From: Trueperaceae bacterium
Lineage (GTDB): Bacteria; Deinococcota; Deinococci; Deinococcales; Trueperaceae
DNA length: 19,807 nucleotides
Assembly: GCA_040905465.1 (NCBI GenBank)
Contig: JBBDRK010000016.1
Location: forward strand, 2,934-22,740
Direction of reading: 5' to 3'
Shown here: piece by piece, positions 867 to 17,677 of the stretch
Layout: every line of letters starts with the position of its first letter
Numbering within the stretch: the first letter of the stretch is position 1
Program-made: the position numbers and the translations under genes
Notes under the pieces: generated by a model
The model's database searches: none
Seen by the model: the letters and a program-made list of their open reading frames with translations, nothing else
Told to the model about the DNA's origin: nothing

Positions 867-895
867 TTGACCATCCGAACAAAAACGATAATAAT
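867..895 (+). promoter_or_regulatory. Putative sigma70-type promoter of the DeoR-led operon
   Basis: TTGACC (867-872), 17-nt spacer, AATAAT (890-895), in the only clearly AT-rich patch of the 703-937 intergenic region. Confidence 0.55.
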
Positions 896-937: not shown

Positions 938-2605
938 GTGCTTCAGGCCGAGCGAGAAAACGAAATACTCACAGCGGTGAACGAGACCGGCTCGGCCTCG
1001 GTGCGCTCCCTGGCCCAGCGGTTTCGGGTAACGGAAGCGACGGTGCGACGCGACCTGCAACGCCTCGAAGACCGGCGGCAATTGCGCCGCATTCATGGTG
1101 GAGCCCTCCGTCTTTCGCCGGACGGCCCGCCTACGATAGGCGCTACCGCTGAGGATCTGCTGGCGCGACCGCAGGACACGCCAGACGGTCTGATCGTGGC
1201 CCCGATCGAGAACACCGCCGCGCGGGCACTGCGGCAGATGGCGCTGCGGCAAGGGATCCCCCTGCTCGCCGAGTCGGCGCCTCAAAGCGGAGCCGTCTAC
1301 CTGGGCCCCGACAACTTCGCTGCCGCGCTGGCGCTGAGCCGCTGGGTTACGGCCGAGATCCGCCGGCGGAAACTCACGCCCACGATTCTCTGCGTTTCTC
1401 ACGATGAACTCGCCAACGCCGCTGCCAGGCGGGCGGGATTGCTGCAAGGCCTGCGCGAAGCGTTCGGCGAGCAGGCGGAGATCGTTACCGTCGACGGAGG
1501 CGGGTTGCTGGATCAGGCCAACCAGGTCGCCCAAGCTGCCCTGCGGGTACAGCCGGCTATCAACGTCATCCTGGGCGTGAACGATGACTCGGTACTGGGA
1601 GCGTTGCACGCCTGCGCCGAGCTGGGACGCGAGACTGGCGAGACGCTGGTCGCCGGCGTCGGCGGGGAGGGCCCAACGCTTTTCGGGGCCATGAGGCGAG
1701 GCGCTGTACACGCCTGCGTGAGCCTGCTCCCCAAGACGGTCGGAGCCACGGCGATCGACTCGCTGGTGCGTTCCTGGCACGGCGAGGAGCTGGGCGCGCA
1801 GATAATCACCCCTTGGTGCCTTTACGTCGCCGCGGAGCTGCCGGCCGGCGAAGGCGCTCCGGTCGGGCCGCCCCTCGAGCCCCTGCCTGAGAACGTCGCA
1901 AGGCACGCGTCGGGTAAGCACGTCGAGTTCATCGTCCAGTTCCGCACCCACGAGTGGTACCAGGAGGTGGCCAAGGCCATGCGCGAACGCGCCCAGGCGT
2001 ACGGCGCAACCTTCACGGCCCATACCGTGGGCGAAGGTTTGGAACGCGAAGTGAGGGAACTGCGCCAGCTTATCGGCAAGGAGGCGGCGGCATATGTGAG
2101 GAGCGGTGAGAGCCTGTTTCTGGACGGTGGCCAAGCCAGCTGCTACGCTGCTCGTTTTCTCGCCGGTAAGCGCACCAGCGTCACCACCCACTCGCTGGCC
2201 GTCTTCAACCTGCTGCACAACCTCCCCGAGATCCAGTTGCGCCTCACCGGAGGCGACTACCATCGCGAACAAAACCTGCTGCACGGCCAAGGAGCTGTGC
2301 AGGCTGTCGCCGGCGTGCGGGTCGACAAACTCTTGCTGTCGGTCGACGGTGCCAGCGAGCGGTTCGGGCTGTCCTCGGCCAGCGAGCACGAACTCGAGGT
2401 GCTGCGCGCCATGGTGCGTTCGGCCCGCGAGGTCGTGGTTCTGGCGGTCCACACCGCCTTCGGCGTGGACGCCAACTTCCACATCGCCGGCCTCGGCTCC
2501 GCCACCACCGTGATTACCGACTCCGGGCTTTCGCCGGAGACGAGGCTCGAGCTGTCCCGCCGCGGGATACGCGTGATCATCGCCTCCCAGGAGATCGCCC
2601 CGTGA
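938..2605 (+). CDS. DeoR/GlpR-family transcriptional regulator with inserted type I periplasmic-binding-protein (RbsB/LacI-like) domain, 555 aa
   Basis: Start reassigned to GTG 938 (GGGGTGGA SD upstream). N-terminal DeoR HTH: ERENEIL...SVRSLAQRFRVTEATVRRDLQRLE...LRRIHGGA. Central RbsB-like motifs: DGLIVAP, GIPLL, LGPDNF, ILGVNDDSVLGA. C-terminal DeoR sensor domain: AAAYVRSGESLFLDGG, VTTHSL, LTGG, VDKLLLSVDG, VITDSG. Confidence 0.9.
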   Translation: MLQAERENEILTAVNETGSASVRSLAQRFRVTEATVRRDLQRLEDRRQLRRIHGGALRLSPDGPPTIGATAEDLLARPQDTPDGLIVAPIENTAARALRQMALRQGIPLLAESAPQSGAVYLGPDNFAAALALSRWVTAEIRRRKLTPTILCVSHDELANAAARRAGLLQGLREAFGEQAEIVTVDGGGLLDQANQVAQAALRVQPAINVILGVNDDSVLGALHACAELGRETGETLVAGVGGEGPTLFGAMRRGAVHACVSLLPKTVGATAIDSLVRSWHGEELGAQIITPWCLYVAAELPAGEGAPVGPPLEPLPENVARHASGKHVEFIVQFRTHEWYQEVAKAMRERAQAYGATFTAHTVGEGLEREVRELRQLIGKEAAAYVRSGESLFLDGGQASCYAARFLAGKRTSVTTHSLAVFNLLHNLPEIQLRLTGGDYHREQNLLHGQGAVQAVAGVRVDKLLLSVDGASERFGLSSASEHELEVLRAMVRSAREVVVLAVHTAFGVDANFHIAGLGSATTVITDSGLSPETRLELSRRGIRVIIASQEIAP

Positions 2606-3819
2606 ATCTCCGCGGGCTCACCTGGGACCACCCGCGAGGCTACCAGCCACTCGAGGCGGCGTCCGCGCGATTCGGCGAGCTGCACGGCGTTGAGATCGGC
2701 TGGGCGCGTCGCTCGCTCAAGGAGTTCGGTGACACTCCCATCGACACACTCGCGGGCGACTTCGACTTGCTGGTCATCGACCATCCCCACGTGGGCATTG
2801 CCGCCCAGTGCGACTGCCTGGTGCCGCTCGACAGCCTGCTCGACCAAGCGACCCTCGCCACGCTGTCCGCCGAGAGTGCCGGGCCCAGTTTCGACAGCTA
2901 CCGCTATGGCGCTCGGCAGTGGGCGCTGGCGGTGGACGCGTCCATGCAGACCAGTTGCTTCCGGCCGGGGTTGCTGCCGGTGCAGCCGCCCCGGGACTGG
3001 CCGGCGGTACTCGACCTGGCGGCGGTGCTGCGTCGGCGCGGCCGTTGGATGGCGGTGCCGCTGGTTCCGACCGACGCGGTGTGCTGCTTCCTCACGCTCT
3101 GCGCCGGGGCGGGCGGCGGCCTGCGGGAAGACGCAGACTTCGTTGCCCCCCGGGTGGGGCTACATGCGCTCAGGCTTCTGCGTACCTTGGCCCTGGCGGC
3201 GCACCCTGCCAGCCTCAGCTGGAACCCGATCGAGCTGTACGAGGCGATGAGCGGGAGCGACGAGATAGCCTACTGCCCCATCGGGTTCTGCTACTCCAAC
3301 TACGCCAGAAACGACTACCGCTCCCGACGGCTCGAGTTCGCCGACCTTCCGGGCGGGCGAGGCAGCCTGCTGGGCGGGGCGGGGATCGCCGTGAGCAAAT
3401 CGTGCCGTGAGCCGGGAGTGGCAGCCGCGTTCGCCGCCTGGCTGTGCAGCGCCGAACAGCAGCGTGGTCTCTATGTGGACGCCGCTGGCCAGCCGGCCAG
3501 TCGCTCCGCCTGGCTGGACGAGCGGGCCAACTCTCTCACCAACGGTTTCTTCAGTGGCACGTTCGCCACCTTGCGGCACGCCTATGTGCGCCCTCGCGAC
3601 CACGGTTTCGTGGCGTTTCAGGAGTATGCGGGAAGGCGGATCCACGACTTCCTGACTACTGCAGCCGAGGGTAACGCGACCGCCGACGCCACGGCCGAGC
3701 CCGCTGCCGACCCCGCTGCCGTCGCCCGCGGCGAGTCCGACGCCGAGTCCGACGCCGCTGCCTGCTTCGCCGACCTGGCGGAAGCCTTCCGCGACAGGAG
3801 GGTGTCGCGGTCATGGTGA
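2602..3819 (+). CDS. Family-1 solute-binding-protein-fold protein lacking a signal peptide (TWDHPRG type)
   Basis: GTGA overlap with the regulator stop. Begins MNLRGLTWDHPRG with no hydrophobic signal. SBP-like motifs DLLVIDHP, QWALAVDA, LLGGAGIAVS, AAAFAAWL, VRPR. Confidence 0.8.
   Translation: MNLRGLTWDHPRGYQPLEAASARFGELHGVEIGWARRSLKEFGDTPIDTLAGDFDLLVIDHPHVGIAAQCDCLVPLDSLLDQATLATLSAESAGPSFDSYRYGARQWALAVDASMQTSCFRPGLLPVQPPRDWPAVLDLAAVLRRRGRWMAVPLVPTDAVCCFLTLCAGAGGGLREDADFVAPRVGLHALRLLRTLALAAHPASLSWNPIELYEAMSGSDEIAYCPIGFCYSNYARNDYRSRRLEFADLPGGRGSLLGGAGIAVSKSCREPGVAAAFAAWLCSAEQQRGLYVDAAGQPASRSAWLDERANSLTNGFFSGTFATLRHAYVRPRDHGFVAFQEYAGRRIHDFLTTAAEGNATADATAEPAADPAAVARGESDAESDAAACFADLAEAFRDRRVSRSW
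3700..3755 (+). repeat. Short in-frame tandem duplications (12-bp period) in the 3' end of the TWDHPRG gene
   Basis: CCCGCTGCCG at 3700 and 3712; CGAGTCCGACGC twice at 3732-3755. Together these encode PAADPAA...ESDAESDA. Confidence 0.6.
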
Positions 3820-4676
3820 TCCCGCTCTCCAGCGTAGCGGTACTCGTCGACGGACTCGATCATCCCGAGGGAGTGGCTCGGGGCTCCGACGGGTTCGTGT
3901 ATGCCGGGGGCGAGGCCGGCCAGGTCTACCGGGTTTCTCTGCTGGGCGAAGCCTCGCAGTTCGCCAGCACCGGCGGCTTCTCCCTGGGGATGTGTCTCGA
4001 CGCCCACCACAACGTCTACGTCTGCGATCAGGCCAGGCGCGCGGTGGTCAGGGTCAGCCCCAGCGGGCAGGTCTCTGCCTATTCCACCGGTGACGAACGT
4101 CGGCGGTTGCGCGTGCCCAATTACCCAGTTTTCGATGGGGACGGCAATCTCTACGTCAGTGATTCCGGAGGCTGGAAGGGCAGCGACGGCACCATCCAGT
4201 TGCTTCGTCCCGATGGCAGCGCCGAGGTCGCCACCGCCACCGACCTGGCCTTTCCCAACGGCCTCGCCCTCGATCCCGAGGGCCGTTACCTGTACGCCGT
4301 CCTCTCCAACGAGTCGCGGGTGGTGCGCTTCGCGCGCCGGGAGCAGGCCAGGCTCGGCCCGGCCGAACATTTCGTTACCCTGCCCCGGACCGTGCCCGAC
4401 GGCCTGGCGTTCGACGCGCAAGGCGGGCTGCTCATCTCCTGCTACGCCCCCGACGCAATCTACCGCTTTAGCTCGCCCGGCCGGCTCGAGCTGCTGATCG
4501 AAGACTGGGAGCGAACCACGCTCGCCAGCCCTACCAACATCGCCTTCGCCGGAGCCGACATGACGACCCTGGTGATTGCCAGCCTGGGACGCTGGCACCT
4601 GGCCACCTGCCAGGTCGACGTTCCCGGCATGCCTCTGAACTACCCCGCAGTGCAAGCGGGAGGAGCCTCACTATGA
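3813..4676 (+). CDS. SMP-30/gluconolactonase/LRE family protein (beta-propeller lactonase)
   Basis: Metal-ligand motifs HPEG, PNY...DGNLYVSDS, FPNGLAL, PDGLAFD and PTNIAF. AGGAGG SD upstream. No signal peptide. Confidence 0.9.
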   Translation: MVIPLSSVAVLVDGLDHPEGVARGSDGFVYAGGEAGQVYRVSLLGEASQFASTGGFSLGMCLDAHHNVYVCDQARRAVVRVSPSGQVSAYSTGDERRRLRVPNYPVFDGDGNLYVSDSGGWKGSDGTIQLLRPDGSAEVATATDLAFPNGLALDPEGRYLYAVLSNESRVVRFARREQARLGPAEHFVTLPRTVPDGLAFDAQGGLLISCYAPDAIYRFSSPGRLELLIEDWERTTLASPTNIAFAGADMTTLVIASLGRWHLATCQVDVPGMPLNYPAVQAGGASL

Positions 4677-5857
4677 CCGGAGCCCTGGAGGGCGTACGAG
4701 TTCTCGATTTCACGCAGATGATGCTGGGACCCTGGGGGACGCAGTTCCTGGGCGACTTCGGGGCCGACGTCATCAAGATAGAGCGGCCAGGCAAGGGCGA
4801 ATGGGAGCGTGGCCTGGCAGCGATGGGAAAGCTGCTTGGTGGCGACAGCCCCTTCTTCATAGCCATGAACCGCAACAAGCGCAGCCTGACTCTCAATCTG
4901 AAGGACCCGCGCGCGGTCGAGATAGTGCTGGAGCTGGCCAAAGAGGCCGACCTGGTGGTCGAGAACTACCGGCCCGGAGTGATGGACCGCCTGGGCATCG
5001 GTTACCAGTCCCTGCGTGAAGTCAACCCGTCGATCGTCTACGTGGCCGGCAGCGGTTACGGCCCCGACGGACCCTATGTGAAGCGGCCCGGCCAGGACCT
5101 GCTCATCCAGTCGTTGTCCGGCCTGGCGGCGAACAGCGGTCGCGGAGATGATCTACCCACGGCGACGGCTACCTCGTTCGTGGACGCCAGCACCGCACTG
5201 ATGCTGGCTCTGTCGGCCACCGTGGGCCTCTTCCACCGGGAGCGCACCGGACAGGGGCAACGCATAGACGTGAACCTGTTCAGCACCGCCGTGGCCATGC
5301 AGTGCCAGGAGCTGACGGCGTTCATGAACCTCGAGGAGCGCTGGGAGCGCAGCAACGAGGGAATCAGCTCACCATGGCTCGGCGCTCCGTTCGGCATCTA
5401 CCGCACGACCGACGGCACGATGGCAATCAGCATGAATCCCCTTACTCAGCTCGGTGAGGTGATAGGCGACCCCGGTTTGGCGGAGCTCGACACCCCGGAG
5501 CTCGCCTACCAGCATCGCGACGAGGTCAAGCGGCGGGTGCAGGAGCGGGTGAAGGCCATGCCCACCGCCCACTGGCTCGAGCTGATGGAGGCGCGCGACA
5601 TGTGGTGCGCCCCGGTGCAGGACTTCGAAGCACTCGTGAACGACCCTCAGGTGAGGCACAACGAGTTGATCCGCACCGTCGAGCACCCGGTAGCAGGCGA
5701 GGTGAAGGTGGTCGGAATCCCGGTCCGCTTCAGCGAAACGCCCGGCGCCATCAAGCGGGGTCCACCGGCGGTCGGCCAGCACAGCACCGAGATCCTGGAC
5801 GAGCTCGGCTACTCAGCCACCGGCATCGATCAACTGCGGGCCGAGGGAGTGATCTGA
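4673..5857 (+). CDS. CaiB/BaiF family (class III) CoA-transferase
   Basis: LEGVRVLDF, GP...LGDFGADVIKIERP, NRNKRSLTLNLK, ADLVVENYRPG, SGYGPDGPY...PGQD. The Asp at the usual catalytic position is kept (SFVDAST). ATGA overlap with the upstream gene. Confidence 0.93.
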   Translation: MTGALEGVRVLDFTQMMLGPWGTQFLGDFGADVIKIERPGKGEWERGLAAMGKLLGGDSPFFIAMNRNKRSLTLNLKDPRAVEIVLELAKEADLVVENYRPGVMDRLGIGYQSLREVNPSIVYVAGSGYGPDGPYVKRPGQDLLIQSLSGLAANSGRGDDLPTATATSFVDASTALMLALSATVGLFHRERTGQGQRIDVNLFSTAVAMQCQELTAFMNLEERWERSNEGISSPWLGAPFGIYRTTDGTMAISMNPLTQLGEVIGDPGLAELDTPELAYQHRDEVKRRVQERVKAMPTAHWLELMEARDMWCAPVQDFEALVNDPQVRHNELIRTVEHPVAGEVKVVGIPVRFSETPGAIKRGPPAVGQHSTEILDELGYSATGIDQLRAEGVI

Positions 5858-5858
5858 G

Positions 5859-6638
5859 GTGGCGCTGGTAGAGCTGACGCGACCTCGTGAGGACGTGGCC
5901 TTGCTCACCGTCAATCGGCCCGACAAACTCAACGCCTTGAACACGCCGCTGTTGGGCGAGTTCGCGGATCACCTGGTCACAGTCGAGGACGACCCGGGGG
6001 TGCGGACGGTCATCATCACCGGAGCGGGCGACAAGGCGTTCGTGGCGGGCGCGGATATCGGAGAGTACGCCGAGGGCGACTCCCAGGCGTTCACGGCCTT
6101 TCAGTTGCGGGGGCGCGCCTTCAACGACCGGCTCGAGCGCTTCCCGAAAGCCACCATCGCCGCGGTCAACGGCTTTGCCCTCGGCGGAGGGTTCGAAATC
6201 GCCCTGTGCTGCGACATCATCGTGGCGACTCCGTCGGCGCGTTTCGGCCTGCCCGAGGGCCTGCTCGGGTTGTCGCCCGGCGGTGGCGGCAGCCAACGGC
6301 TTCTGCGCGCGGCCGGGCCCTTCGTGGCCGCCGACGTGCTCCTCTCCGCCCGGAGGCTCAGCGGCGAGCGCGCCCACGCCCTGGGGTTGGTGGCGGACGT
6401 GGTAGAGCCGGAGCAGCTGCTCAACAGTGCCTTGGAGAAGGCCGGCTACATCGCCAGGGTGGCACCGCTGGCGGCCCGTGAGATGAAGCGGTTGCTGCGC
6501 GAGGGTGCCGACGCCGCCCTGCCGACGGCGCTCTCGCTGGAGCAGGAAGTGCTCTTTCGGCTCTACTCGACTGCCGATGCCGGCGAGGGCATCCGGGCTT
6601 TTCTGGCCAAGCGGCCCGCGACTTTCGAGGGCAGGTAA
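5859..6638 (+). CDS. Enoyl-CoA hydratase/isomerase (crotonase) family protein
   Basis: NRPDKLNALN, AFVAGADI (oxyanion hole), AAVNGFALGGGFE and FGLPE. Both catalytic Glu of true hydratases are present. Confidence 0.93.
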   Translation: MALVELTRPREDVALLTVNRPDKLNALNTPLLGEFADHLVTVEDDPGVRTVIITGAGDKAFVAGADIGEYAEGDSQAFTAFQLRGRAFNDRLERFPKATIAAVNGFALGGGFEIALCCDIIVATPSARFGLPEGLLGLSPGGGGSQRLLRAAGPFVAADVLLSARRLSGERAHALGLVADVVEPEQLLNSALEKAGYIARVAPLAAREMKRLLREGADAALPTALSLEQEVLFRLYSTADAGEGIRAFLAKRPATFEGR

Positions 6639-7411
6639 TGGCTGGCCGCTTCCCGGACAGGGTTGCAGTGGTCACCGGCGCTGCCGACGGTATCGGGCGG
6701 GTTACCGCCAGGCAACTGGCGCGCGAACAGGCGATCGTGGTGATAGCCGACATCGACGAGGAAGCCGGCCGGCGGGCCGCGGCGGAACTTCGCGAGCAGG
6801 GCGGCGACGCCCACTTCGTGCCTGTGAACGTGGCGGACAGCGCCAGCACACAGAGGCTGTTCGGAGAAGTGCTCGAACGCTGGGAACGGGTGGATGTGCT
6901 GGTGAACAACGCAGCGATAGCCGTCCCCGGGAGTGTGCTGAGTATCTCCGAGGAAGAGTGGCGGCTGGTCCTGGACACCAACCTAACCGGCGCCTGGCGG
7001 GCGATGCGGCTGGCGCTGCCCCACATGATCGAGCGCGGGCGCGGAGCGGTAGTCAACGTCAGCTCGATGCAGGGCCAGCTCGGCTTCAAGGGCTGGTCTG
7101 CCTACGCCGCGGCCAAGGGCGGCCTGGAGGCGCTCACCCGGCAGGCGGCGGTCGAGTACGCGCCGCACGGCGTCCGGGTGAACGCGGTGGCGCCCGGAAC
7201 GATCATGACACCGATGAACGAGCGGATATTCCGGGAGTCTGACGACCCCGAGGAGCTCATATCGCGCTGGAATGGCCTGCACGCGCTGGGGCGTTTCGGC
7301 CGGCCCGAGGAGGTCGCGGAAGCGATCCTGTTCCTGGCCTGCGACGGTGCCTCGTTCATCACCGGCGAGACGCTGCGGGTTGAGGGTGGCATGGCGGTCA
7401 AGGGTGGCTGA
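6638..7411 (+). CDS. Classical SDR family oxidoreductase (probably NAD-preferring)
   Basis: TGAADGIG, acidic ADID after beta2, VLVNNA, NVSS, catalytic YAAAK, VRVNAVAPG and ASFITG. TAATG coupling to the upstream gene. Confidence 0.93.
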   Translation: MAGRFPDRVAVVTGAADGIGRVTARQLAREQAIVVIADIDEEAGRRAAAELREQGGDAHFVPVNVADSASTQRLFGEVLERWERVDVLVNNAAIAVPGSVLSISEEEWRLVLDTNLTGAWRAMRLALPHMIERGRGAVVNVSSMQGQLGFKGWSAYAAAKGGLEALTRQAAVEYAPHGVRVNAVAPGTIMTPMNERIFRESDDPEELISRWNGLHALGRFGRPEEVAEAILFLACDGASFITGETLRVEGGMAVKGG

Positions 7412-8432
7412 GCTCTTCGGACGGAGCTGGAGCCGGCGCGAGCTCCTCGAACGGGTGGGCGATGTGGCCCAGTTGGCCGGCGTACGCGCCGCCGTCCTCG
7501 GCGACGGACGCGCGGCAGGAGTCGGGATGCTGGAGGTGTATACCTCCGGACTGACCTTCCAGATCCTCTCGGGCCGGGCCCTGGACATCGGCGCCTGCAG
7601 CTTCCGTGGCCTTCCGTTGCAGTGGACATCGCCGGTAGGAGAGGTCCACCCGGCCTACTACGAACCGGCAGGCAAGGGCTGGTTGCGTTCGTTCCCCGGG
7701 GGATTGCTGACTACTTGCGGCCTCGACCACTTCGGCGCCGCCTCGGTCGCCGGAGGCGAGGATCGTGGGCTGCACGGCCGAGCGTCGAATCTGCCGGCGG
7801 AGCGCGTTGCCTGGCGCGGCCGCTGGCTAGGCGACGAGTACGAGATCGAGGTGACCGGGCGCGTACGCCAAGCTCGTTTGTTCGGCGAGAATCTGACCCT
7901 CGAACGCAGACTCGTCACCAGACTGGGCGCGAGTTGGCTGCGCGTGGAGGACACCGTCAGCAACGAGGGCTTCCGCGAGCAACCGCATATGCTCCTCTAC
8001 CACTGCAACCTGGGTTTTCCGCTGGTTCAGGCCGGCGCCGAACTGCATCTCGACAGCCGCGAGACTGTCGCCGTCGACGCCAAGGCGGAGGCCGGACTGG
8101 GCATCTGGTCACAGGTCGACGAGCCAGCAGCCGGTTACTCGGAGCAGGTGTTCCGTCACCGGCCGCTCGTCCAGGCGGATGGGTCCGCGGTCGCCCGGCT
8201 GCTCAGCCCGAGGTCGAAACTCGCCCTGGACCTGCGCTTTTCGGCCGAAAGCCTGCCCTACCTCTACCAGTGGAAGATGCTGGGCCAGGGAGAATACGTG
8301 CTGGGCCTGGAACCGGCCAACTGCCCCGGCTTGGCGGGGAGTGCAGCGGCTCAGGCCCGAGGCGATGTCCCGCTACTCGCCCCGGGCGAACAACGCAGCT
8401 ACTCGCTGACCTTCGAGCTGGAGGAGGCGTGA
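7404..8432 (+). CDS. Aldose 1-epimerase/mutarotase-like protein (DUF4432-like), 342 aa
   Basis: Start reassigned to GTG 7404 (8-nt overlap with the SDR gene): MAELFGRSWSRRELLERVG. Motifs GRALDI, GWLRSFPGGLLTTCGL, LHGR, LYHCNLGFP, YVLGLEP (His/His/Glu mutarotase-type residues). Confidence 0.85.
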   Translation: MAELFGRSWSRRELLERVGDVAQLAGVRAAVLGDGRAAGVGMLEVYTSGLTFQILSGRALDIGACSFRGLPLQWTSPVGEVHPAYYEPAGKGWLRSFPGGLLTTCGLDHFGAASVAGGEDRGLHGRASNLPAERVAWRGRWLGDEYEIEVTGRVRQARLFGENLTLERRLVTRLGASWLRVEDTVSNEGFREQPHMLLYHCNLGFPLVQAGAELHLDSRETVAVDAKAEAGLGIWSQVDEPAAGYSEQVFRHRPLVQADGSAVARLLSPRSKLALDLRFSAESLPYLYQWKMLGQGEYVLGLEPANCPGLAGSAAAQARGDVPLLAPGEQRSYSLTFELEEA

Positions 8433-8443
8433 CGAGCTGCCCC

Positions 8444-9460
8444 TCAGCCGGCCGCCGACCGCAGCTCCTCGAGCCGTACGGTCCGGTCCTCGCGGTACGA
8501 CCGCTCTGCGGCCAGACAGGCCAATTGGACCTCGAACCCCTGGCGCACGTCCGGCTCGGGACGGCTACTTGCCAACACGGCCCGTGCGAACGCGCGCAGC
8601 TCGCTGCGATAGGCGTCGTGGTAGCGCTCAAGGAACCAGTTCACGTGCGCCCGCACGATGCCGCTCTCACCGAAGAGGGTGAGCTGGTCGGCGTGGTCGT
8701 CACGCACCACGCCTTTGCCCAAGCTGCCTCCCACCTCCAGCAGCGCCTCGTAACCGTAGCCGGTTCGCAAGCGGTTCTCGATCGTCCCCAGCCTGCCGCT
8801 CTCGAAGCGCAGGCCGATCGACGTGGTGTCGGGCTTGCCCAACTCCAGAAAGCGGGGGTCGAGGCAGGCGTCGCCCCAAGCCCGAACCTCGCTTATCGGT
8901 CCGAAGAAGAGCAGGGCCATGTCCATGTCGTGGCTGAGGGTGTCGTGGAAGATGCCGGCCGCCCGCTGCATCGCTTCGAAGCTGGTTCCGCTGGGGTCGG
9001 CGGTGGCGGAACGGAAGGTCTCGAGCGAGCCCAGCTCGCCCGCCGCCACCGCCCGGCGCAGCCTCTCCACGCCAGCGTCGAAGCGCCGTTGGAACCCGAT
9101 CTGAAACGGCACCCCGCTCGCTTCGACCTTTTCCACCACTCCACGCGCCTCGGCCAGATCGACAGCCAGCGGCTTTTCACAGAAAATCGCCTTGCCGGCG
9201 GCCGCCGCTCGCTCTATCAGGTCGGCGTGGGTGAAGGCGGGCGTAGCAATCACCACCGCGTCTATCCCAGGGTCGTCGAGCGCCGCGCCCGGATCGCTGC
9301 CGGCAACTGGACAGCCCGCTTCCGCGGCGACCTTGCGGGCACTCTCGCCGTCGACATCTATCACCGCTGCCAATCGTGCCTGCGTCATGGTGGCCAGCGT
9401 CTCGGCATGGAACCTGCCCATCAATCCAGCGCCCAGAAGTGCCATTTGCAAACGTCCCAC
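8444..9460 (-). CDS. Gfo/Idh/MocA family oxidoreductase (inositol 2-dehydrogenase-like)
   Basis: LGAGLMG Rossmann motif, DAVVIATP, IFCEKP, QIGFQRRFD and GIFHDTLSHDMD. GTG 9460 preferred because GGAGG lies 7 nt upstream of it but almost abuts ATG 9466. Confidence 0.9.
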   Translation of the reverse strand: MGRLQMALLGAGLMGRFHAETLATMTQARLAAVIDVDGESARKVAAEAGCPVAGSDPGAALDDPGIDAVVIATPAFTHADLIERAAAAGKAIFCEKPLAVDLAEARGVVEKVEASGVPFQIGFQRRFDAGVERLRRAVAAGELGSLETFRSATADPSGTSFEAMQRAAGIFHDTLSHDMDMALLFFGPISEVRAWGDACLDPRFLELGKPDTTSIGLRFESGRLGTIENRLRTGYGYEALLEVGGSLGKGVVRDDHADQLTLFGESGIVRAHVNWFLERYHDAYRSELRAFARAVLASSRPEPDVRQGFEVQLACLAAERSYREDRTVRLEELRSAAG

Positions 9461-9770
9461 CAGCATTCCTCCGTACCGGCTAGCTCGCGGCCGAGTCCGA
9501 ATCTACAACAGAACCGTTGGCTCGGTACCCGGCAGCGGGTGCCGCCGGTCCGCCGGCACCCCCCTGCGAGCCCAAACCGATCGGAAACTCCCCCGACATC
9601 ACCAGCCAAGAGTCCTTCACCGCCCCCGGCGCTCCCAGCCGAGGTCGATCCGAAGGGGGGGAAGATGGCAGACATCGCTGTCGGATAGCTTCTCGAAATT
9701 CTCTCCGCCACGAGTTCACGGATCCGCTTTCTCACCTGTTGAAGCAGTGCATTGACCCGGAGGTCGGCAA

Positions 9771-11057
9771 ATGAAGCGATTGCTCTTTTCGGCACTACTC
9801 ACCCTCGCCTGCTCGGCTGCTGCGCAAGGCCAGCTAAAAGTTGCTCACTACTTCGATCCGCTCGGCGGCAGCCACCTGGTAGCCAGCCTCGAGTGGCTGG
9901 AAGGGGTAACGGAAGTGTTCCGTTCGCAGAGCGAGGATACCCGGGTGGACTACGAACTCTTCGCCTGGGACGAGATCGATCAGCGGATGGTGGTCGACCA
10001 GCAGGCCGGGGTGGCCCACGACGTCACCTTCGCGTCGTCGCAACTCACCCCCCGGCACGCCGCGGCCGGCAGCCTCCAGGACATCTCGGCCTTCGTAGAG
10101 CAGTGGAGCCCGGAGGAGTTGGAGGATCTCTCCTGGAGCCCGGTGTGGGAAGCGGGCTACCCGTACGGCATTCCCACGGGCGTCCATATCCGCCTGATGG
10201 CGTACCGAACCGATCTGTTCGAGGAGGCAGGGCTGAGCCCGCCAACCACGCTGGACGAGCTCGTGGAGCAGGCGAAGACCCTCACCAGGGACACCGACGG
10301 TGACGGCGAAATCGACACCTGGGGGCTCGGCATCTACCTCGGCTCCCAACGTGCCACCGCCGAACTGGCGTTCACGCCTCTTGTATGGCACTTCGGTGGC
10401 GACGTGTGGGACGCAGAGTCGGGCGAGGCCACATTCGCCTCGGATGCCGGCGTGCAGGCGGCACAGTTCCTCAGCGACCTGGTGCACGAGCACAAGGTGA
10501 CACCGGAGTGGGTGGTAGCCGGAAATTACGACGATGTAGTCCTGCGTGGACTGCTCGACGGCCAGTTCGCCATGACCTGGGGCTATGGCTCCTACTGGAT
10601 ATCGGTGCTCGAGGATGAGGGACTGACCCAGGGATGCTGGCCGGCCACCGTCGACTGCACCAGCACCGGCGCCAGCGTGTTCGTCACGCCCACCGATGGG
10701 GGCGCTCAATTCGGCAACTCCTGGATCGTGGGAGTGCATGGACGGAGCCAACAGCCCGAACTCGCCTTCGACTACATCGAGGCGATGGTCGAGTCGGGAA
10801 CCCTGGAGGGTTTCGCGGACGGTGGCCTGCCGGCGCGCCAGTCCGCCTGGAACGCTCCCGAGTACGATTCTGATTTCTACCGGGCCTGGTTCGATGCGGT
10901 CGCCCGGGGACGCTCCATGCCCACCACCACACGCTTCAACGAACTCGCCGACGCCATGACCGCTGCTTTGGCCGATATCGTGCTCCGCGGCCTGCCCGTG
11001 GAGCAGACTCTGGAGAGGTACCAGAGGGAGTACAACGCGAGCTACGCGGGCGAATGA
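9771..11057 (+). CDS. Carbohydrate ABC transporter substrate-binding protein (family 1)
   Basis: Signal peptide MKRLLFSALLTLACSAAA-QG. Motifs YGIP, AYRTDLFEEAGLSPPTTLDEL and GQFAM. GGAGGT SD upstream. Followed by two permeases. Confidence 0.92.
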   Translation: MKRLLFSALLTLACSAAAQGQLKVAHYFDPLGGSHLVASLEWLEGVTEVFRSQSEDTRVDYELFAWDEIDQRMVVDQQAGVAHDVTFASSQLTPRHAAAGSLQDISAFVEQWSPEELEDLSWSPVWEAGYPYGIPTGVHIRLMAYRTDLFEEAGLSPPTTLDELVEQAKTLTRDTDGDGEIDTWGLGIYLGSQRATAELAFTPLVWHFGGDVWDAESGEATFASDAGVQAAQFLSDLVHEHKVTPEWVVAGNYDDVVLRGLLDGQFAMTWGYGSYWISVLEDEGLTQGCWPATVDCTSTGASVFVTPTDGGAQFGNSWIVGVHGRSQQPELAFDYIEAMVESGTLEGFADGGLPARQSAWNAPEYDSDFYRAWFDAVARGRSMPTTTRFNELADAMTAALADIVLRGLPVEQTLERYQREYNASYAGE

Positions 11058-11064
11058 GACGCCA

Positions 11065-11149
11065 GGAGGCAGGGCGTCGCGCCACCTTCCGATCGTGACG
11101 CCTGGCCTCCGCTCGGCGTCGCGCTGCCCAACCGCGGCGGCGCGACGTC
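11065..11149 (+). other. Two tandem GC-rich hairpins between the SBP and permease genes
   Basis: Arms 11065-11081/11094-11110 pair at 16 of 17 positions (including 2 G-U). Arms 11115-11128/11136-11149 pair at 14 of 14 (including 2 G-U). No U-tract follows. Confidence 0.65.
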
Positions 11150-11165
11150 CCTCTAACGGAGAACC

Positions 11166-12038
11166 ATGAGTCGATATTCCAGGCAGAGCCTGACCGCCTA
11201 CCTGTTCCTGCTGCCCGCCGTGGCGGCGCTGGCCACGCTGGTGCTGTTCCCGATCTTCGACGGGCTGATCATGAGCTTCCAGCGGGTAATGCTCAGCGGG
11301 GAACGTGAATTCATCGGCTTGGGCAACTACACCTCCCTCTTCGCCCAGTCGCGATTCTGGGACAATCTGCTCTACTCGCTGATCTATCTCACCGGCAACC
11401 TCGTCCTCGCGGTACCGCTCGGCTATATCGCGGCACTGCTCCTGACATCGGAGCTGCCCGGAACCCGCTATTTTCGGACTATCTTCCTGTTCCCCTGGGT
11501 CATGACCCCGGCGGTCACCGCGCTCATGTTCCAGTCGCTGGTGGACCCGGTGTCCGGGCCGGTAACGCGGCTGATGCAGTCCCTCACCGGGGAGCGGACC
11601 TATTTTCTGATCGATCCGGACCTGGCGATGCTCACGCTGGTGGTGCACTCTGCCTGGCGCTCGTTCCCGCTGATCATGCTGTTCCTGGCCGCCGGCATCG
11701 CCGGCATTCCCAAGGAGATCTACAGTGCCGCGAGTCTCGACGGCGCCAACGGTTGGACCATGTTCCGACACATAACCTTGCCGCTCACCAGGGTGCAACT
11801 GTTCATCGTGGTGCTGGTGATAACCGCTTTCACGTTGCAGGACGCCGAGAGCGTCTACGCGCTCACCGGCGGTGGTCCGGGCAACAGTACCGAGGTGGTT
11901 GCTGTCCGGCTCATGAAAGAGGCCTTCCGAAACCTGAACCTCGGCCTGGGTGCGGCGATCAGCGTGGTCCTGCTGTTTGCCGGCGGGCTGGTGATGCTTG
12001 TCTATTCGAGACTGATCGGCGAGGAGTCGACGCAGTGA
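11166..12038 (+). CDS. Carbohydrate ABC transporter permease (MalF/UgpA type)
   Basis: YLFLLPA, FIGLGNY, FRTIFLFPWV, and an EAA-type loop IPKEIYSAASLDGANGWTMFRHITLPL. Multiple TM segments. Confidence 0.93.
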   Translation: MSRYSRQSLTAYLFLLPAVAALATLVLFPIFDGLIMSFQRVMLSGEREFIGLGNYTSLFAQSRFWDNLLYSLIYLTGNLVLAVPLGYIAALLLTSELPGTRYFRTIFLFPWVMTPAVTALMFQSLVDPVSGPVTRLMQSLTGERTYFLIDPDLAMLTLVVHSAWRSFPLIMLFLAAGIAGIPKEIYSAASLDGANGWTMFRHITLPLTRVQLFIVVLVITAFTLQDAESVYALTGGGPGNSTEVVAVRLMKEAFRNLNLGLGAAISVVLLFAGGLVMLVYSRLIGEESTQ

Positions 12039-12823
12039 GACTCGTCCTGCATTGGCTGGGATTGCTGCTGATCGCCCTGTTCGTTCTGTCGCCGCTCGCC
12101 TGGGCGCTCAGGACGTCGTTTGCCGTGGCTCGCGATTTCCGCTTGTTCCCCAGCCTCACGCTCGAGAACTACCGGTTCCTGCTGTCGCAGCCGCTGTTCT
12201 ACACCTATGTGAAGAACAGCCTGGTGGTGACCGTATCGTCGGTTCTGATCGTGCTAGCCCTCAGCCTGCTGGCCGGCTACGCCCTGGCCAAACTGCGCTT
12301 TCCCGGCCGCCGCTTCGGCATTCTGTTCCTGCTTGTTCCGCTCATCCCACCGATCGCCGTGCTGGTGCCGCTTATCGGCTTCATGTTCCGCGCGGGCCTG
12401 TACGACACGTTAGCCGGTCTGATCGCGCTGAACAGCGTGTTCAACCTGCCGTTCGCCGTCTGGATGGCCCGCGGGTTCATCCTGGCGGTGCCCGAGGAGG
12501 TGGAGGAGGCCGCCATGCTCGACGGCGCCTCGCGTCTGGGAATCCTGGTCCGCATCATCGTGCCGCTCACGACTACCGGGATGATCGCGGTTGCCACCTA
12601 CGTCTTCATTCAGACCTGGAACAACTACATCTACGCCTTCGCGATCATCTCCTCGCCGGCCGAACGAGTGGTGCCGATGGGGATCCTCGCTTCGCTGGGG
12701 GCGTGGGGAACCCAGTGGGGCCCTCTCACGGCGTTCGGCGTTCTAGGTGTCCTGCCGCCGATACTCCTGCTGCTGCTTGCGCACCGTTGGTTCGTAACCG
12801 GGTTCGTGAGCGCTGCCAAGTGA
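12035..12823 (+). CDS. Carbohydrate ABC transporter permease (MalG/UgpE type), 262 aa
   Basis: Start reassigned to GTG 12035 (GTGA overlap, GAGGAG SD). TLENY, NSLVV, AGYALAKLRFPG, EAA loop VPEEVEEAAMLDGAS, and WNNY. Confidence 0.93.
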   Translation: MRLVLHWLGLLLIALFVLSPLAWALRTSFAVARDFRLFPSLTLENYRFLLSQPLFYTYVKNSLVVTVSSVLIVLALSLLAGYALAKLRFPGRRFGILFLLVPLIPPIAVLVPLIGFMFRAGLYDTLAGLIALNSVFNLPFAVWMARGFILAVPEEVEEAAMLDGASRLGILVRIIVPLTTTGMIAVATYVFIQTWNNYIYAFAIISSPAERVVPMGILASLGAWGTQWGPLTAFGVLGVLPPILLLLLAHRWFVTGFVSAAK

Positions 12824-12849
12824 AGCTCCCTTAGAATGGTGCGGCCCCG

Positions 12850-14559
12850 CTACTCCTTGAGGAACGCCTTCACCAGCTTGGCCTGGCCGGCGCCCTCGTT
12901 CAGCAGTCGGTAGCTGCCGGCAGCGGCCGGAACGATGAACGTCTCGGCAAAATGGAAGCGCTGTTCGCGGCCGCCGCAACGCAGGAGGATCGGGCCGCCC
13001 TCCACCAGGTTCAGCACGTGCGGCCCGCCTCGGGTCGTCGCCTCGACCTGCCGGGCGAACTCCAGGCGATGTACGTCGTAGAAGTGCTCGGCGTGGGTGG
13101 GCAGGTGGACGGTTCGCCAACCGTCACCTTGTTCCAGCACGCGCGGCGTGGCGATGAGCTCCTCGTCTACACGCCCTCCCGCCCGCCCGAAATCGAGGTT
13201 CTCGAAGGCGCGCTCTATGTTGAGCGGCCGGGGCTGCCCGTCGAGCCCGAGCCGCTGCCAGTCGTACAGCTTGAAGGTGAAGATGTAGGGCGTGGCGCTG
13301 ATCTCGAGCACCATGTTGCCGGCTCCCGAGCAGTGGATGGTGCGATTAGGGATGAGGAACAGATCGTGCTTCTCGGCTGGCAACGCGCGCACGAAGCGTC
13401 CCACGTCCAGCGCCTGCCCGCTCCGCGCGCTCTCCTCGAGCGCCGCACGGAACTCGGCCGGCTCGATTCCCTCCCGGAAGCCCAGGTAGACCTGCGCGCT
13501 TGGCGCAAGATCGACGATGTAGTAGGTCTCGTCCTGAGTGAACGACTCACCGAACTGGCGGCGAATGTACTCACTTCCGGGGTGGCACTGCAGCGACAGA
13601 TTGCCACCCTCGACCGTGTCGAGGTAGTCGAAGCGGATAGGGAACTCGTCGCCGAAACGCTCCCGGTGCCTGCCGAGCAGCGCCTCGCCGGCATGGAACA
13701 TCAGGAAGTCGAAGGAGACCTCCAGCCGCTGCCCGCCGCTTTCCAGAGCGATACTGTTCTCCGGCGTTATCAGCTCGAACGACCATGCGTAGTTGGGCAC
13801 GTCCTGCGGCAGCTCCGGAATCAGCCGCTTGAGCCACTGGCCGCCCCACGGGCCCGGCTCGAACCACGGCACCGCCCGCACGAAACTGGTTCCCATGCCG
13901 TCCAGCGCGCGGCGTAGATCGTCTCCCGTCACGAAGGAAGGTTCGGCGGTCTGCCGGCCATCGACAAGCAGGTCGATTCGCGAGGTGAGTTCCGCCTTGT
14001 GCCGGTTCAGCGCTACCCAGTCAACGAAGTAGAAGCGCTTGTACATCTCCTTGGGCGGCGCCGGCTCGTCACTACCGAGGTTGCCTATCTCGCCCGAGCG
14101 TGAACGGTACTGGACGACGTTCTTGGATACGTCCACGTAGGCCAGAAAGCCGGCCCATTTGGCAAGAGCCGCGCCGCTGCCGTAAATGATCGAGACTTGC
14201 GCCTGCGGATCCGGTTGCAGGGCAGCGAGGGCGCTCGTGTCGAAGAACTCCCGTAGCCGGCCAGTGAAGCGCGTCCCGAACAGCGGATCGTTGCCGCCCA
14301 GGAAGGGCGCTACCAACTCCTCGATCTGCCGGGCGGGCCGGAGGGCGTCGGCGACCGGCTGCCAGTGGACGTTCACGCCGGAACGTTCGAAGGCTGCCGC
14401 CAGTGCGCCCCTCAACTCCTCCCACAACACTCCCCCGTAGCCGTCTAGGATGACGACGCGCTGTCGCGCCAGGGTGGCGGCCAGGGCTTCGGCGCCGGTG
14501 CCGATGCGTCCCGGCTCGAGTCCGAAGGCGGGTTGCGGGTCGTAGCCGCGGCGAGTCAC
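12850..14559 (-). CDS. Long class I mannose-6-phosphate isomerase-like cupin protein with extra N-terminal domain
   Basis: PWGGQWL, FPIRFDYLDT, NLSLQCHP, QDETYY, HCSG and VLEIS (Q/H/E/H metal ligands of type I PMI). At 569 aa it has a ~220-aa N-terminal extension containing ILDGYGG. Confidence 0.8.
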   Translation of the reverse strand: MTRRGYDPQPAFGLEPGRIGTGAEALAATLARQRVVILDGYGGVLWEELRGALAAAFERSGVNVHWQPVADALRPARQIEELVAPFLGGNDPLFGTRFTGRLREFFDTSALAALQPDPQAQVSIIYGSGAALAKWAGFLAYVDVSKNVVQYRSRSGEIGNLGSDEPAPPKEMYKRFYFVDWVALNRHKAELTSRIDLLVDGRQTAEPSFVTGDDLRRALDGMGTSFVRAVPWFEPGPWGGQWLKRLIPELPQDVPNYAWSFELITPENSIALESGGQRLEVSFDFLMFHAGEALLGRHRERFGDEFPIRFDYLDTVEGGNLSLQCHPGSEYIRRQFGESFTQDETYYIVDLAPSAQVYLGFREGIEPAEFRAALEESARSGQALDVGRFVRALPAEKHDLFLIPNRTIHCSGAGNMVLEISATPYIFTFKLYDWQRLGLDGQPRPLNIERAFENLDFGRAGGRVDEELIATPRVLEQGDGWRTVHLPTHAEHFYDVHRLEFARQVEATTRGGPHVLNLVEGGPILLRCGGREQRFHFAETFIVPAAAGSYRLLNEGAGQAKLVKAFLKE

Positions 14560-15491
14560 GAGTTGGTGCCCGGCTTACCCTCGACAAGCAGTTGGCTGGC
14601 AGCGCCCTGCAGTGCGGCGGCGTCCAGTCTCATCGCGGTAACCAAATCCGGTGTCGGAGATACTTCCGCGTTCTGCACGAGCGCCTGCCTGGCGGCGGGA
14701 ACGAAGAGATCGGCACTGCGGCTTATCTGGCCGCCCAGCACGACCCGCTGCGCCCGGAAACCGGCGAACACCGGTGCCAGCGCCGCTGCCAGTGCCTCTC
14801 CGAAGCGCCTGTAGGTTTCCGCTGCTCGCTCGTCGCCGGAGCGGGCCAGGTCCGCCAGCTCGGCGCCGTCGATCTCGTCCTCGATCCGACCAGAGCCCGC
14901 TACCTCCCGCCACAACCGCCACAACCCGCGTTGCGAGAGCCACTCGTCCACTACCGCACCACGATAGGGCAGCGGATAGACGTAGCCGTTCTCGGGAACG
15001 CCTTCACCCTCGCTCACCAGCGCGCCATCCACCGCGAACGCCGATCCGCAGCCAGTCCCCAGCGTGAGGAACACGGCGCGTTCCATGCCGCGCGCAGCGC
15101 CGTAGTGCAGTTCCCCCAGCGCGAAGGCCGCGGCGTCGTTCACCCACCTCCAGGGAAGGGAGCTCAGTTGGGGCAGGCGCCGGCGCAACAACGAGTCGAG
15201 CTCGAGCCCATAGAGTGCCTCGAACTTCCCCAGGCCATTCATCCGGCTTATCGCCCGCCGGTAGTCGAACGGGCCGGGAATGGCCACCGTGACCCCGATG
15301 ACGGTGCTCTCGCCTGCCCGGCCATGCGCGGCCTCTATCGCCTCGGTTAGCTCGGCCAGGATCTCCTGGGCACCAGCTGTGCTGTCGATAGTTCGTCTGG
15401 CCAGGTCACCGTCGACGCTGCCATCGCTCTGTATCAGTCCGCTCTTGATCGCGCTTCCGCCTATATCGAAACTGATCACTACGCGGCTCAC
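14556..15491 (-). CDS. ROK family sugar kinase
   Basis: FDIGGSAIK (ATP-binding), AIPGPFD, VNDAAAFALGE, LTLGTGCGSAF and VVLGGQIS. No HTH. GTGA overlap with the PMI-like gene. Confidence 0.9.
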   Translation of the reverse strand: MSRVVISFDIGGSAIKSGLIQSDGSVDGDLARRTIDSTAGAQEILAELTEAIEAAHGRAGESTVIGVTVAIPGPFDYRRAISRMNGLGKFEALYGLELDSLLRRRLPQLSSLPWRWVNDAAAFALGELHYGAARGMERAVFLTLGTGCGSAFAVDGALVSEGEGVPENGYVYPLPYRGAVVDEWLSQRGLWRLWREVAGSGRIEDEIDGAELADLARSGDERAAETYRRFGEALAAALAPVFAGFRAQRVVLGGQISRSADLFVPAARQALVQNAEVSPTPDLVTAMRLDAAALQGAASQLLVEGKPGTNS

Positions 15492-17596: not shown

Positions 17597-17603
17597 TGAG
17601 CAG

Positions 17604-17609
17604 ACTTTA
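17604..17609 (-). promoter_or_regulatory. Putative -10 box (TAAAGT) for a leaderless DUF4139 transcript
   Basis: TANNNT lies 7 nt upstream of ATG 17596, and there is no SD sequence. Confidence 0.5.
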
Positions 17610-17666
17610 CCGCAACCGCTCGAACGGGTCACAGCGCTGCCGTGAGCGGCCCGGCGAAAGTGCGCA

Positions 17667-17672
17667 TAGACT
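17667..17672 (+). promoter_or_regulatory. Putative -10 box (TAGACT) for a leaderless membrane-protein transcript
   Basis: TANNNT lies 5 nt upstream of ATG 17678, and there is no SD sequence. Confidence 0.5.
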
Positions 17673-17677
17673 ACGTA

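Follow-up and report, generated by a model that had tools for sequence, protein, structure and literature searches.

The dehydration of sugar acids is as a rule the work of metal-dependent enzymes, and we know of hardly any coenzyme A (CoA) chemistry at the sugar-acid level of sugar catabolism. Dehydration of CoA esters is the scheme of 2-hydroxy-acid dehydratase systems and of the carnitine enzymes CaiB/CaiD, in which CoA can cycle from product to substrate and no ATP is spent. An acyl-CoA route for 2-deoxy-D-ribonate was proposed in Klebsiella michiganensis (Price et al. 2019, PMC6365646), with a CoA synthetase, a beta-hydroxyacyl-CoA dehydrogenase, a thiolase and a glycerate kinase and, in the available part of that paper, no crotonase. 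This proposed route was the only CoA chemistry on sugar acids that we found in print in the searchable full-text literature (subscription journals and supplements outside its scope). We studied a stretch of 19,807 nt (the window) from a Trueperaceae bacterium (assembly GCA_040905465.1, contig JBBDRK010000016.1, positions 2,934 to 22,740 of the forward strand), in which an operon joins genes of sugar-oxidation families to genes for a family III CoA-transferase, a crotonase and a protein with the fold of solute-binding proteins (SBPs), here called SBPc. Our results are best summed up as pointing to a widespread, uncharacterised SBP-fold/CoA-transferase module for sugar-derived acids; the window operon is a compact form of it that brings an oxidation front end of its own. 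We are highly confident that this is a conserved, sugar-linked CoA-transferase module.

Seven genes follow one another without real gaps on the positive strand between 938 and 8432 (Table 1). The regulator gene, whose stop is at 2605, overlaps the SBPc gene by 4 nt (GTGA), and the next junctions are a 7-nt overlap (SBPc/lactonase), a 4-nt overlap (lactonase/CoA-transferase), a 1-nt gap (CoA-transferase/crotonase), a 1-nt overlap (crotonase/short-chain dehydrogenase/reductase, SDR) and an 8-nt overlap (SDR/DUF4432). The last one supposes the DUF4432 start at GTG 7404; an alternative open reading frame (ORF) from ATG 7272 would overlap the SDR gene by 140 nt. The G+C content at third codon positions (GC3) was 0.78-0.87 across the seven frames and 0.80-0.87 in the six behind the regulator gene. 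An initial annotation of this DNA had described six positive-strand genes coupled by overlaps or a 1-nt gap; this coupling was confirmed, and the families it named agreed with the Pfam and NCBIfam assignments. Its gene order has to be corrected, the SBP-fold gene being first and the mutarotase-like gene last, and it had missed a seventh coupled gene, that of the DeoR-type regulator. It had also noted that kinase, aldolase, enolase/IlvD-type dehydratase and thiolase genes are lacking, and Pfam and NCBIfam scans of 2602-8432 indeed gave none; neither did the operon contain a UxuA, enolase-superfamily, IlvD/Edd or altronate-type dehydratase.

Table 1 Coordinates of the operon and of neighbouring features in the window
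Feature	Position	Strand	Evidence
Regulator gene (HTH_DeoR + Peripla_BP_4 + DeoRC)	938..2605	+	Pfam
SBPc, SBP fold	2602..3819	+	SBP_bac_8 8.5e-9
SMP-30/gluconolactonase-like six-bladed propeller, putative sugar lactonase	3813..4676	+	SGL 5e-25
Family III CoA-transferase	4673..5857	+	CoA_transf_3 1.5e-107
Crotonase-type enoyl-CoA hydratase/dehydratase	5859..6638	+	ECH_1 4.7e-59
Classical SDR	6638..7411	+	adh_short_C2 1.1e-71
DUF4432, mutarotase-like protein	7404..8432	+	DUF4432 1.6e-104
Promoter-like site TTGACC-17-AATAAT, upstream of regulator gene	867..895	+	consensus match only
IolG-like GFO/IDH/MocA dehydrogenase	8444-9466	-	TIGR04380 307 bits, below 355 cut-off
CUT1 ATP-binding cassette (ABC) transporter	9771-12823		exported-type SBP 9771-11057, permeases 11166-12823

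Relatives of SBPc occur in at least 585 places in a collection with one genome per species, culturable carriers among them being Cohnella, Pedobacter, Mucilaginibacter, Marinimicrobium and Simiduia, and we compared the best 80 of these genome loci by ORF clustering and Pfam annotation. A family III CoA-transferase adjoins SBPc in 75 of the 80 loci, distributed over many phyla, and in three of the five others the contig ends near the SBPc gene; the conserved core is thus SBPc plus family III CoA-transferase. Many loci have a second family III transferase, often as tandem paralogues (116 ORFs in 75 loci). Around this core the most frequent genes encode MaoC hydratases and GFO/IDH/MocA (GFO) dehydrogenases (32/80 loci each), SDRs (27/80), crotonases (26-27/80), members of an ORF cluster named SBP2 (23/80; a second signal-less SBP-fold family together with some exported SBPs), RhaT-type transporters (21/80), IclR regulators (18/80), aldehyde dehydrogenases (ALDH, 15/80), class I CoA-transferases and Amidohydro_2 lactonases (13/80 each), SGL lactonases (12/80) and glycoside hydrolases of family GH2 (8/80). 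A dehydrogenase of some family was present in 66 of the 80 loci, alternating among SDR, GFO and ALDH. Neither the 30 ORF clusters of widest occurrence nor the other annotated ORFs included a thiolase, CoA ligase or 3-hydroxyacyl-CoA dehydrogenase family. Families that cleave 2-keto-3-deoxy acids were seen near the module as 2-keto-3-deoxy-6-phosphogluconate (KDPG) aldolase (6 loci), FAH (6), dihydrodipicolinate synthase (2) and RraA-like proteins (2).

The same partnership appeared in natural fusions. The 778-aa metagenome protein P0123, a single record that may be a gene-calling artefact, has SBPc at the N-terminus and a complete CoA_transf_3 domain at the C-terminus, and in a second fusion protein a class I CoA-transferase is linked to a portion of SBPc. 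Trees of SBPc and of the CoA-transferases group by the same types of locus, and their pairwise distances correlated with r = 0.77 (60 pairs, with no correction for shared ancestry). Loci of the window's type, named W after the clade of their transferase (see below), combine the core with sugar genes in various arrangements: SDR, transferase, SGL lactonase, crotonase and SBPc in the verrucomicrobial L008; SDR, crotonase, a PF01263 aldose 1-epimerase, transferase and SBPc in Cohnella L006; and an ABC transporter, DUF4432, SGL, SDR, transferase, class I transferase, SBPc and UxuA in Anaerolineae L041. A different compact cluster found elsewhere reads MaoC-SBPc-CoAT-CoAT-lactonase-RhaT-GFO. Among 60 genomes related to that of the window the SBPc gene was found in only one, so that the module is patchy among kin. 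The gene set is nevertheless more than a chance assembly because its core recurs in other genomes, with sugar genes beside it, as the initial annotation had expected of a true pathway.

SBPc is the most tightly conserved partner of the CoA-transferase; its SBP fold had been noticed before and its weight underrated. Its profile matched best to sugar SBPs among solved structures (1eu8, trehalose/maltose-binding protein, 5.4e-16), with MalE3 and a sulfoquinovosyl-glycerol binder as further relatives by fold or profile. The AlphaFold2 model (predicted local distance difference test score, pLDDT, 95.3; predicted template modelling score, pTM, 0.93) starts its first beta-strand at residue 2, and Foldseek gave template modelling (TM) scores of 0.72-0.77 to sugar SBPs, which places it in the type II periplasmic-binding fold. 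The model thus confidently predicts a MalE-like (CUT1 sugar-binding) fold. An FbpA-like iron site, suspected from invariant His, Asp and Tyr residues, was rejected, as profile and fold searches both led to sugar SBPs. The ORF opens at 2602 directly after an in-frame stop and therefore leaves no room for a signal peptide, and in the family about 142 of the 150 matches listed (our reading of the table) start at most 13 residues from the N-terminus, which leaves none there either. No signal peptide or lipobox was found at the ORF start, in the model or in the family matches listed. No permease genes adjoin SBPc; the lactonase and CoA genes come next. From model and gene start together, SBPc would be a MalE-like ligand-binding protein retained in the cytoplasm.

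Across 78 sequences from all locus types, 58 SBPc columns are at least 93% conserved, among them W8, H10, R12, R37, D60, H61, Y100, D112, R121, Y231, N233, Y234, Q287, Q297, W304, R330 and R332; the first three fall in the motif TWDHPRG (residues 7-13, nt 2620-2640). At E <= 1e-30, 845 clusters among 1.84 billion representatives belong to the family, and public sources label its proteins only as transporter binding proteins.

Other SBP-fold arrangements were seen in the same collection. Signal-less members of SBP2 (N-terminus FRIAVRKFGPFE) follow two CoA-transferases and precede GFO and MaoC in Bacteroidota and other loci (e.g., L024, L036, L037, L040, L042 at 3958-5202, L044, L045, L051 and L052); their relationship to SBPc is remote (17% identity, hhalign probability 56%), and some other members of the cluster carry export signals. 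In L011 and L017 two tandem SBPc paralogues lie by one W-clade transferase, a crotonase and TRAP-transporter genes. A URO-D-like protein is encoded between SBPc and the transferase in L001 (10119-11174), and such proteins also stand by close DUF4432 relatives (L088:3285-4427 and L092:2032-3252).

The CoA-transferase of the window is full length (residues 5-371 match positions 1-366 of the 366 of the PF02515 profile, E 1.5e-107), and its best solved relative is a succinate-hydroxymethylglutarate CoA-transferase (2.5e-68). The transferases split into three clades, and the window copy falls in clade W, which consists of single transferases (24 locus sequences plus the window copy; the L001 copy was left out of this analysis by a length filter). 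Besides an SDR, loci of this clade contain a class I transferase or else a crotonase. In the 110 sequences of the three clades Asp171 is 100% conserved, and by the alignment offsets its column is presumably that of the catalytic Asp, corresponding to about Asp169 of formyl-CoA transferase. The crotonase is likewise complete (residues 11-258 match positions 4-250 of the 251 of PF00378, E 4.7e-59). It had been credited with both catalytic Glu, and this was confirmed: E113 (GGGFEIA) and E133 (GLPEG), 20 residues apart, fall on the Glu positions of the hydratases 5z7r and 4fzw in the alignment. Among solved structures the crotonase comes closest to the short-chain enoyl-CoA hydratase 5z7r (3.5e-56), PaaF (4fzw) and a 3-hydroxypropionyl-CoA dehydratase (5zai).

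The oxidation front end is less specific. The SDR passes the cut-off of the NCBIfam subfamily 'glucose 1-dehydrogenase' (232.6 vs 215), and many SDR models score alike; by sequence it is as unspecific as its closest relatives, and it is probably an aldose 1-dehydrogenase. The lactonase reached 89 bits with SGL (PF08450; cut-off 26.3), matched the solved gluconolactonases 3dr2 (1.2e-10) and 8djf (1.6e-9), and has homologues of 41-51% identity in L008, L016, L022 and L041. The DUF4432 protein spans the full-length domain (349 bits), and its solved relative 3ty1 (1.1e-26) is deposited as a 'hypothetical aldose 1-epimerase'; this depositor's name, together with the PF01263 epimerase within the module of L006, suggests a mutarotase-like function. 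The initial annotation had named DeoM as a DUF4432-like deoxyribose mutarotase, a statement that found no confirmation in the literature searched, the word 'mutarotase' occurring 0 times in the available part of PMC6365646. It had also overrated DUF4432. None of 80 metagenome loci with its relatives (41-57% identity) presented SBPc, transferase, crotonase or lactonase beside them, 25 of the 80 had an SDR near, and the contexts were of a general sugar type. Divergent DUF4432 proteins occur in L041, L016 and L030. DUF4432 is a lineage-specific add-on and no conserved member of the module. The closest SDR-DUF4432 pair (56% identity each) is that of L086, where it stands with a metallo-beta-lactamase-fold hydrolase and a UxuA-type acid-sugar dehydratase. 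In the window the CoA genes occupy the place held there by UxuA and the window's own genome gave no UxuA match, which fits a replacement of the dehydratase.

The surroundings of the module are firmly carbohydrate-related and do not point to one sugar. Neighbouring genes encode GH78 and GH106 rhamnosidases, GH2, GH29, GH35, GH27, GH38 and GH43 enzymes, porphyranase, sulfatases and agarase proteins with carbohydrate-binding modules, LacI, IclR and DeoR regulators, transporters of RhaT and other sugar types, and an OiaX-like RuBisCO-like protein with a DUF1537 kinase. The type of glycosidase differs by locus (rhamnosidase, fucosidase, galactosidase, mannosidase or BPa0997-like enzyme). A close homologue of BPa0997 (PDB 6hzf, 7.6e-299), presumably a GH138 alpha-galacturonidase acting on rhamnogalacturonan-II, directly follows the module in six Chitinophagaceae loci (L035, L056, L057, L069, L077 at 15583-18231, and L078). 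Marine gammaproteobacterial and flavobacterial loci read IclR (reverse), SBPc, two transferases, crotonase, ALDH and GH2, and some of them adjoin KDPG aldolase, PfkB kinase and enolase-superfamily genes. Some module loci look like rhamnogalacturonan-II and agar utilisation clusters.

In the window itself the regulator is of a sugar type, with HTH_DeoR (1.1e-14), a LacI-type Peripla_BP_4 sugar-binding domain (3.7e-22) and a DeoR C-terminal sensor domain (DeoRC, 1e-30) in the ORF 638-2605. This three-part chain is unusual, and the same build (41% identity) adjoins a related cluster in the Chloroflexia genome L001 (3481-5214). The start is uncertain and likely GTG 938, within the ORF opening at 638. 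The promoter-like site upstream has 10 of 12 consensus matches; two such sites occur in 10 kb, vs 0.5 expected from shuffles.

As a tentative reading, which we favour and to which we give somewhat less than an even chance, the operon would serve the oxidation of a free aldose by a route that, from the acid onwards, proceeds through CoA thioesters. The DUF4432 protein would equilibrate the anomers, the SDR would oxidise C1 to give the lactone, and the SMP-30-type lactonase would open it to the sugar acid. The family III CoA-transferase would then form the sugar-acyl-CoA, from which the crotonase would take off the 3-hydroxyl by alpha-proton abstraction and beta-elimination; tautomerisation would yield 2-keto-3-deoxy-acyl-CoA, and the same transferase would hand the CoA from this product to the next sugar-acid molecule. 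The 2-keto-3-deoxy acid would be cleaved by enzymes encoded elsewhere in the genome, which has three KDPG-aldolase-like and six FAH-family matches outside the window. Such a CoA-cycling dehydration would take the place of the metal-dependent acid-sugar dehydratase of the usual oxidative sugar pathways. SBPc would work with, and probably on, the CoA-transferase, where it may present or hold a common anionic ligand or catalyse a step of its own.

Several points weigh against this scheme. The sequence comparisons show the gene families, the catalytic residues, the module's conservation and sugar context and the coupling of SBPc to the transferase; the order of the steps, the identity of the acyl group, the cycling of CoA and whatever SBPc does are what we infer from them, and the cycle as such gives SBPc, the most conserved part, no job. 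In the gene maps 12 loci with a class I CoA-transferase have no crotonase or MaoC in view. UxuA lies beside or near SBPc in three class-I-transferase loci and in a fourth locus, so the CoA module is not simply a dehydratase substitute everywhere. Many loci carry two family III transferases and a one-enzyme CoA cycle needs one; a 2-oxoacyl-CoA intermediate is, in our assessment, chemically unusual; and the SDR, with its unspecific closest relatives, could act on a CoA ester instead. Although the glycosidases differ between locus types, the polar residues of SBPc do not vary, and a common small ligand, a shared head group or the CoA moiety would therefore fit at least as well as a sugar acid. 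Apart from this, a simple rule by which a hydratase replaces the dehydratase was tried and rejected: a dehydratase of the UxuA or enolase type lies near the module in 10 of the 80 loci, 5 of which have a hydratase as well.

A broader proposition, possible in our view and on balance unlikely, is that SBPc and the family III transferase form a two-component enzyme that had escaped recognition and is used by hundreds of species, in which a cytoplasmic sugar-binding protein would present a sugar acid on the transferase or transform it there, and which together with crotonase or MaoC would be a thioester-based alternative to the metal-dependent acid-sugar dehydratases. Its substrates would possibly be acidic or rare sugars without known catabolism.

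The initial annotation had proposed a beta-oxidation-like pathway, in which a sugar acid, possibly a 2-deoxy-aldonate, would be activated with CoA, the crotonase and the SDR (as 3-hydroxyacyl-CoA dehydrogenase) would follow, and cleavage of the chain beside the thioester would fall to the product of a gene outside the operon or to a hydrolytic retro-Claisen step. The CoA-transferase, crotonase and SDR genes do sit together, and the CoA-linked deoxyribonate route in Klebsiella that had been named in its favour exists in print as a proposal (PMC6365646). The alternation of crotonase and class I transferase between loci would also be explained if either cut the chain. Proteins of the crotonase fold and of the class I CoA-transferase fold can cleave C-C bonds in other pathways. 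The fit is nonetheless poor and we regard this reading as improbable. Thiolase, CoA synthetase and glycerate kinase are absent from the operon and from the conserved neighbours, and the crotonase keeps both hydratase Glu. There is usually one dehydrogenase per cluster, and its alternation among SDR, GFO and ALDH is the pattern expected for the step from sugar to acid, which argues against beta-oxidation. As no thiolase, CoA ligase or second dehydrogenase is conserved, CoA cycling of the CaiB/CaiD kind is favoured over it. Nothing indicates deoxy sugars, and the 2-deoxy-sugar substrate found no support. The enzymes of the Klebsiella route, as given in the available part of that paper, are not in the operon.

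Another reading takes its start from the invariance of the pocket-type residues of SBPc across loci with different glycosidases: the module would act on a small molecule that several sugar pathways produce in common (for example lactate, glycerate, glycolate or 3-hydroxypropionate) instead of on the sugar acid, and SBPc would bind this molecule. The resemblance of the crotonase to 3-hydroxypropionyl-CoA dehydratase and short-chain hydratases, the marine ALDH, which scores just below the cut-off of NCBIfam PRK10090 'aldehyde dehydrogenase' (482.6 vs 500), and a lactate permease beside L015 are consistent with it. However, the compact clusters and the window operon have no enzymes to take a sugar acid down to a small acid, and SBPc descends from oligo- and monosaccharide binding proteins, which leaves this reading with little probability.

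We consider it still less probable that the thioester serves epimerisation, i.e., that C2 or C3 is inverted by proton exchange or by dehydration and rehydration and the epimer enters a dehydratase route such as that of UxuA. Crotonase and MaoC hydratases have opposite stereospecificity, and family III includes alpha-methylacyl-CoA racemases. L040 has both hydratases, such racemases are among the solved relatives of the transferase (3.4e-32), and the next gene downstream of SBPc is that of UxuA in L016, L022 and L041, while in L013 it is more distant. Yet most loci have one hydratase type only, the conserved Asp171 does not separate transferases from racemases, and the genome of the window lacks a UxuA match. 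Finally, a mere juxtaposition of a sugar-oxidation unit (SDR, DUF4432 and lactonase) with a CoA unit for a non-sugar acid, as the separation of close DUF4432 relatives from CoA genes and the solitary SBPc gene among the 60 related genomes might suggest, is very improbable in view of the translational coupling of all genes behind a sugar-type regulator, of other W-type loci that again join a mutarotase (DUF4432 or PF01263), lactonase, SDR and CoA genes, and of the CoA core lying among sugar transporters and glycosidases in many phyla.

Further genes of the window lie downstream of the operon. The GFO gene, convergent with the operon, is divergent from the genes of the ABC transporter, and tblastn found no orthologue of it among the GFO genes of the related loci (0/80). 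The transporter's SBP had no specific solved relative. Its second permease (BPD_transp_1, 2.4e-11) is read in the frame 11753-12823 (+); the ORF 12052-12834 (+) was rejected as a gene, being in the wrong frame, with a GC3 of only 0.44 and no Pfam match. On the negative strand, 12850-15491 contains the gene of a 569-aa protein whose residues 229-468 resemble the type I mannose-6-phosphate isomerase 1qwr (1.7e-11). This gene overlaps a ROK-family kinase gene, and both lie by the CUT1 transporter, which suggests, by sequence similarity, a mannose or hexose uptake unit beside the operon. The frame 15506-17632 (-) has a GC3 of 0.83, no Pfam family and a weak match to the MuiA family (TIGR02231, 7e-10, below cut-off), and 17642-19105 (+) is coding-type (GC3 0.79), also with no Pfam family.

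The pairing of SBPc and CoA-transferase occurs in hundreds of bacterial species, and the pathway, which the initial annotation had called undescribed, had no description in the searchable full-text literature, either as an SBPc/CoA-transferase module or in any paper naming an aldonyl-, uronyl- or aldaryl-CoA. Nothing relevant was found there on DUF4432, on agar or pectin loci with CoA genes or on Pedobacter fitness data, and the main text of two papers on red-algal polysaccharide utilisation loci does not mention the module genes. A conserved module of this kind would bring a new logic into the breakdown of carbohydrates. Genes now labelled 'ABC transporter substrate-binding protein' or 'CaiB/BaiF family' would gain a function, and gaps could be closed in the polysaccharide utilisation loci that serve plant pectin and red-algal galactans. 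The module would also exemplify a solute-binding protein recruited as an enzyme partner.

In comparison with described systems, the operon shares the entry families of oxidative non-phosphorylative aldose pathways (mutarotase, 1-dehydrogenase and lactonase), whereas their acid-sugar dehydratase is replaced here in position by the CoA genes. With the Klebsiella route it would share the sugar acid as CoA thioester, and a lactonase and a CoA-transferase are present in the cluster of that route as well (PMC6365646); it differs in having a crotonase and an SBP-fold protein, neither of which appears in the available part of that paper, and in lacking its four enzymes. SBPc has the fold of the CUT1 sugar-binding proteins (MalE, trehalose/maltose-binding protein and SmoF) and a detectable sequence relationship to them, but it has no signal peptide, lipobox or following permeases and is coupled, and once fused, to a CoA-transferase. 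The tandem family III paralogues of many loci recall BbsEF, the heteromeric benzylsuccinate CoA-transferase, whose subunits are among the solved relatives, while the window's only transferase belongs to a third clade. The Cai system likewise combines a family III CoA-transferase with a crotonase that dehydrates a 3-hydroxyacyl-CoA, and CaiB and CaiD relatives were in our hit lists. The match is at the family level only (CaiB 144.5 vs cut-off 413, CaiD 142.3 vs 500), and the window transferase resembles dicarboxylate enzymes (2.5e-68) more than it does CaiB (8e-27). The operon lacks the CaiC ligase, the CaiA dehydrogenase (reductase) and the CaiT antiporter, and has instead a context of sugar catabolism and an invariant SBP-fold partner. 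By analogy, it would work like the Cai system, as a separate system and not as a member of it.

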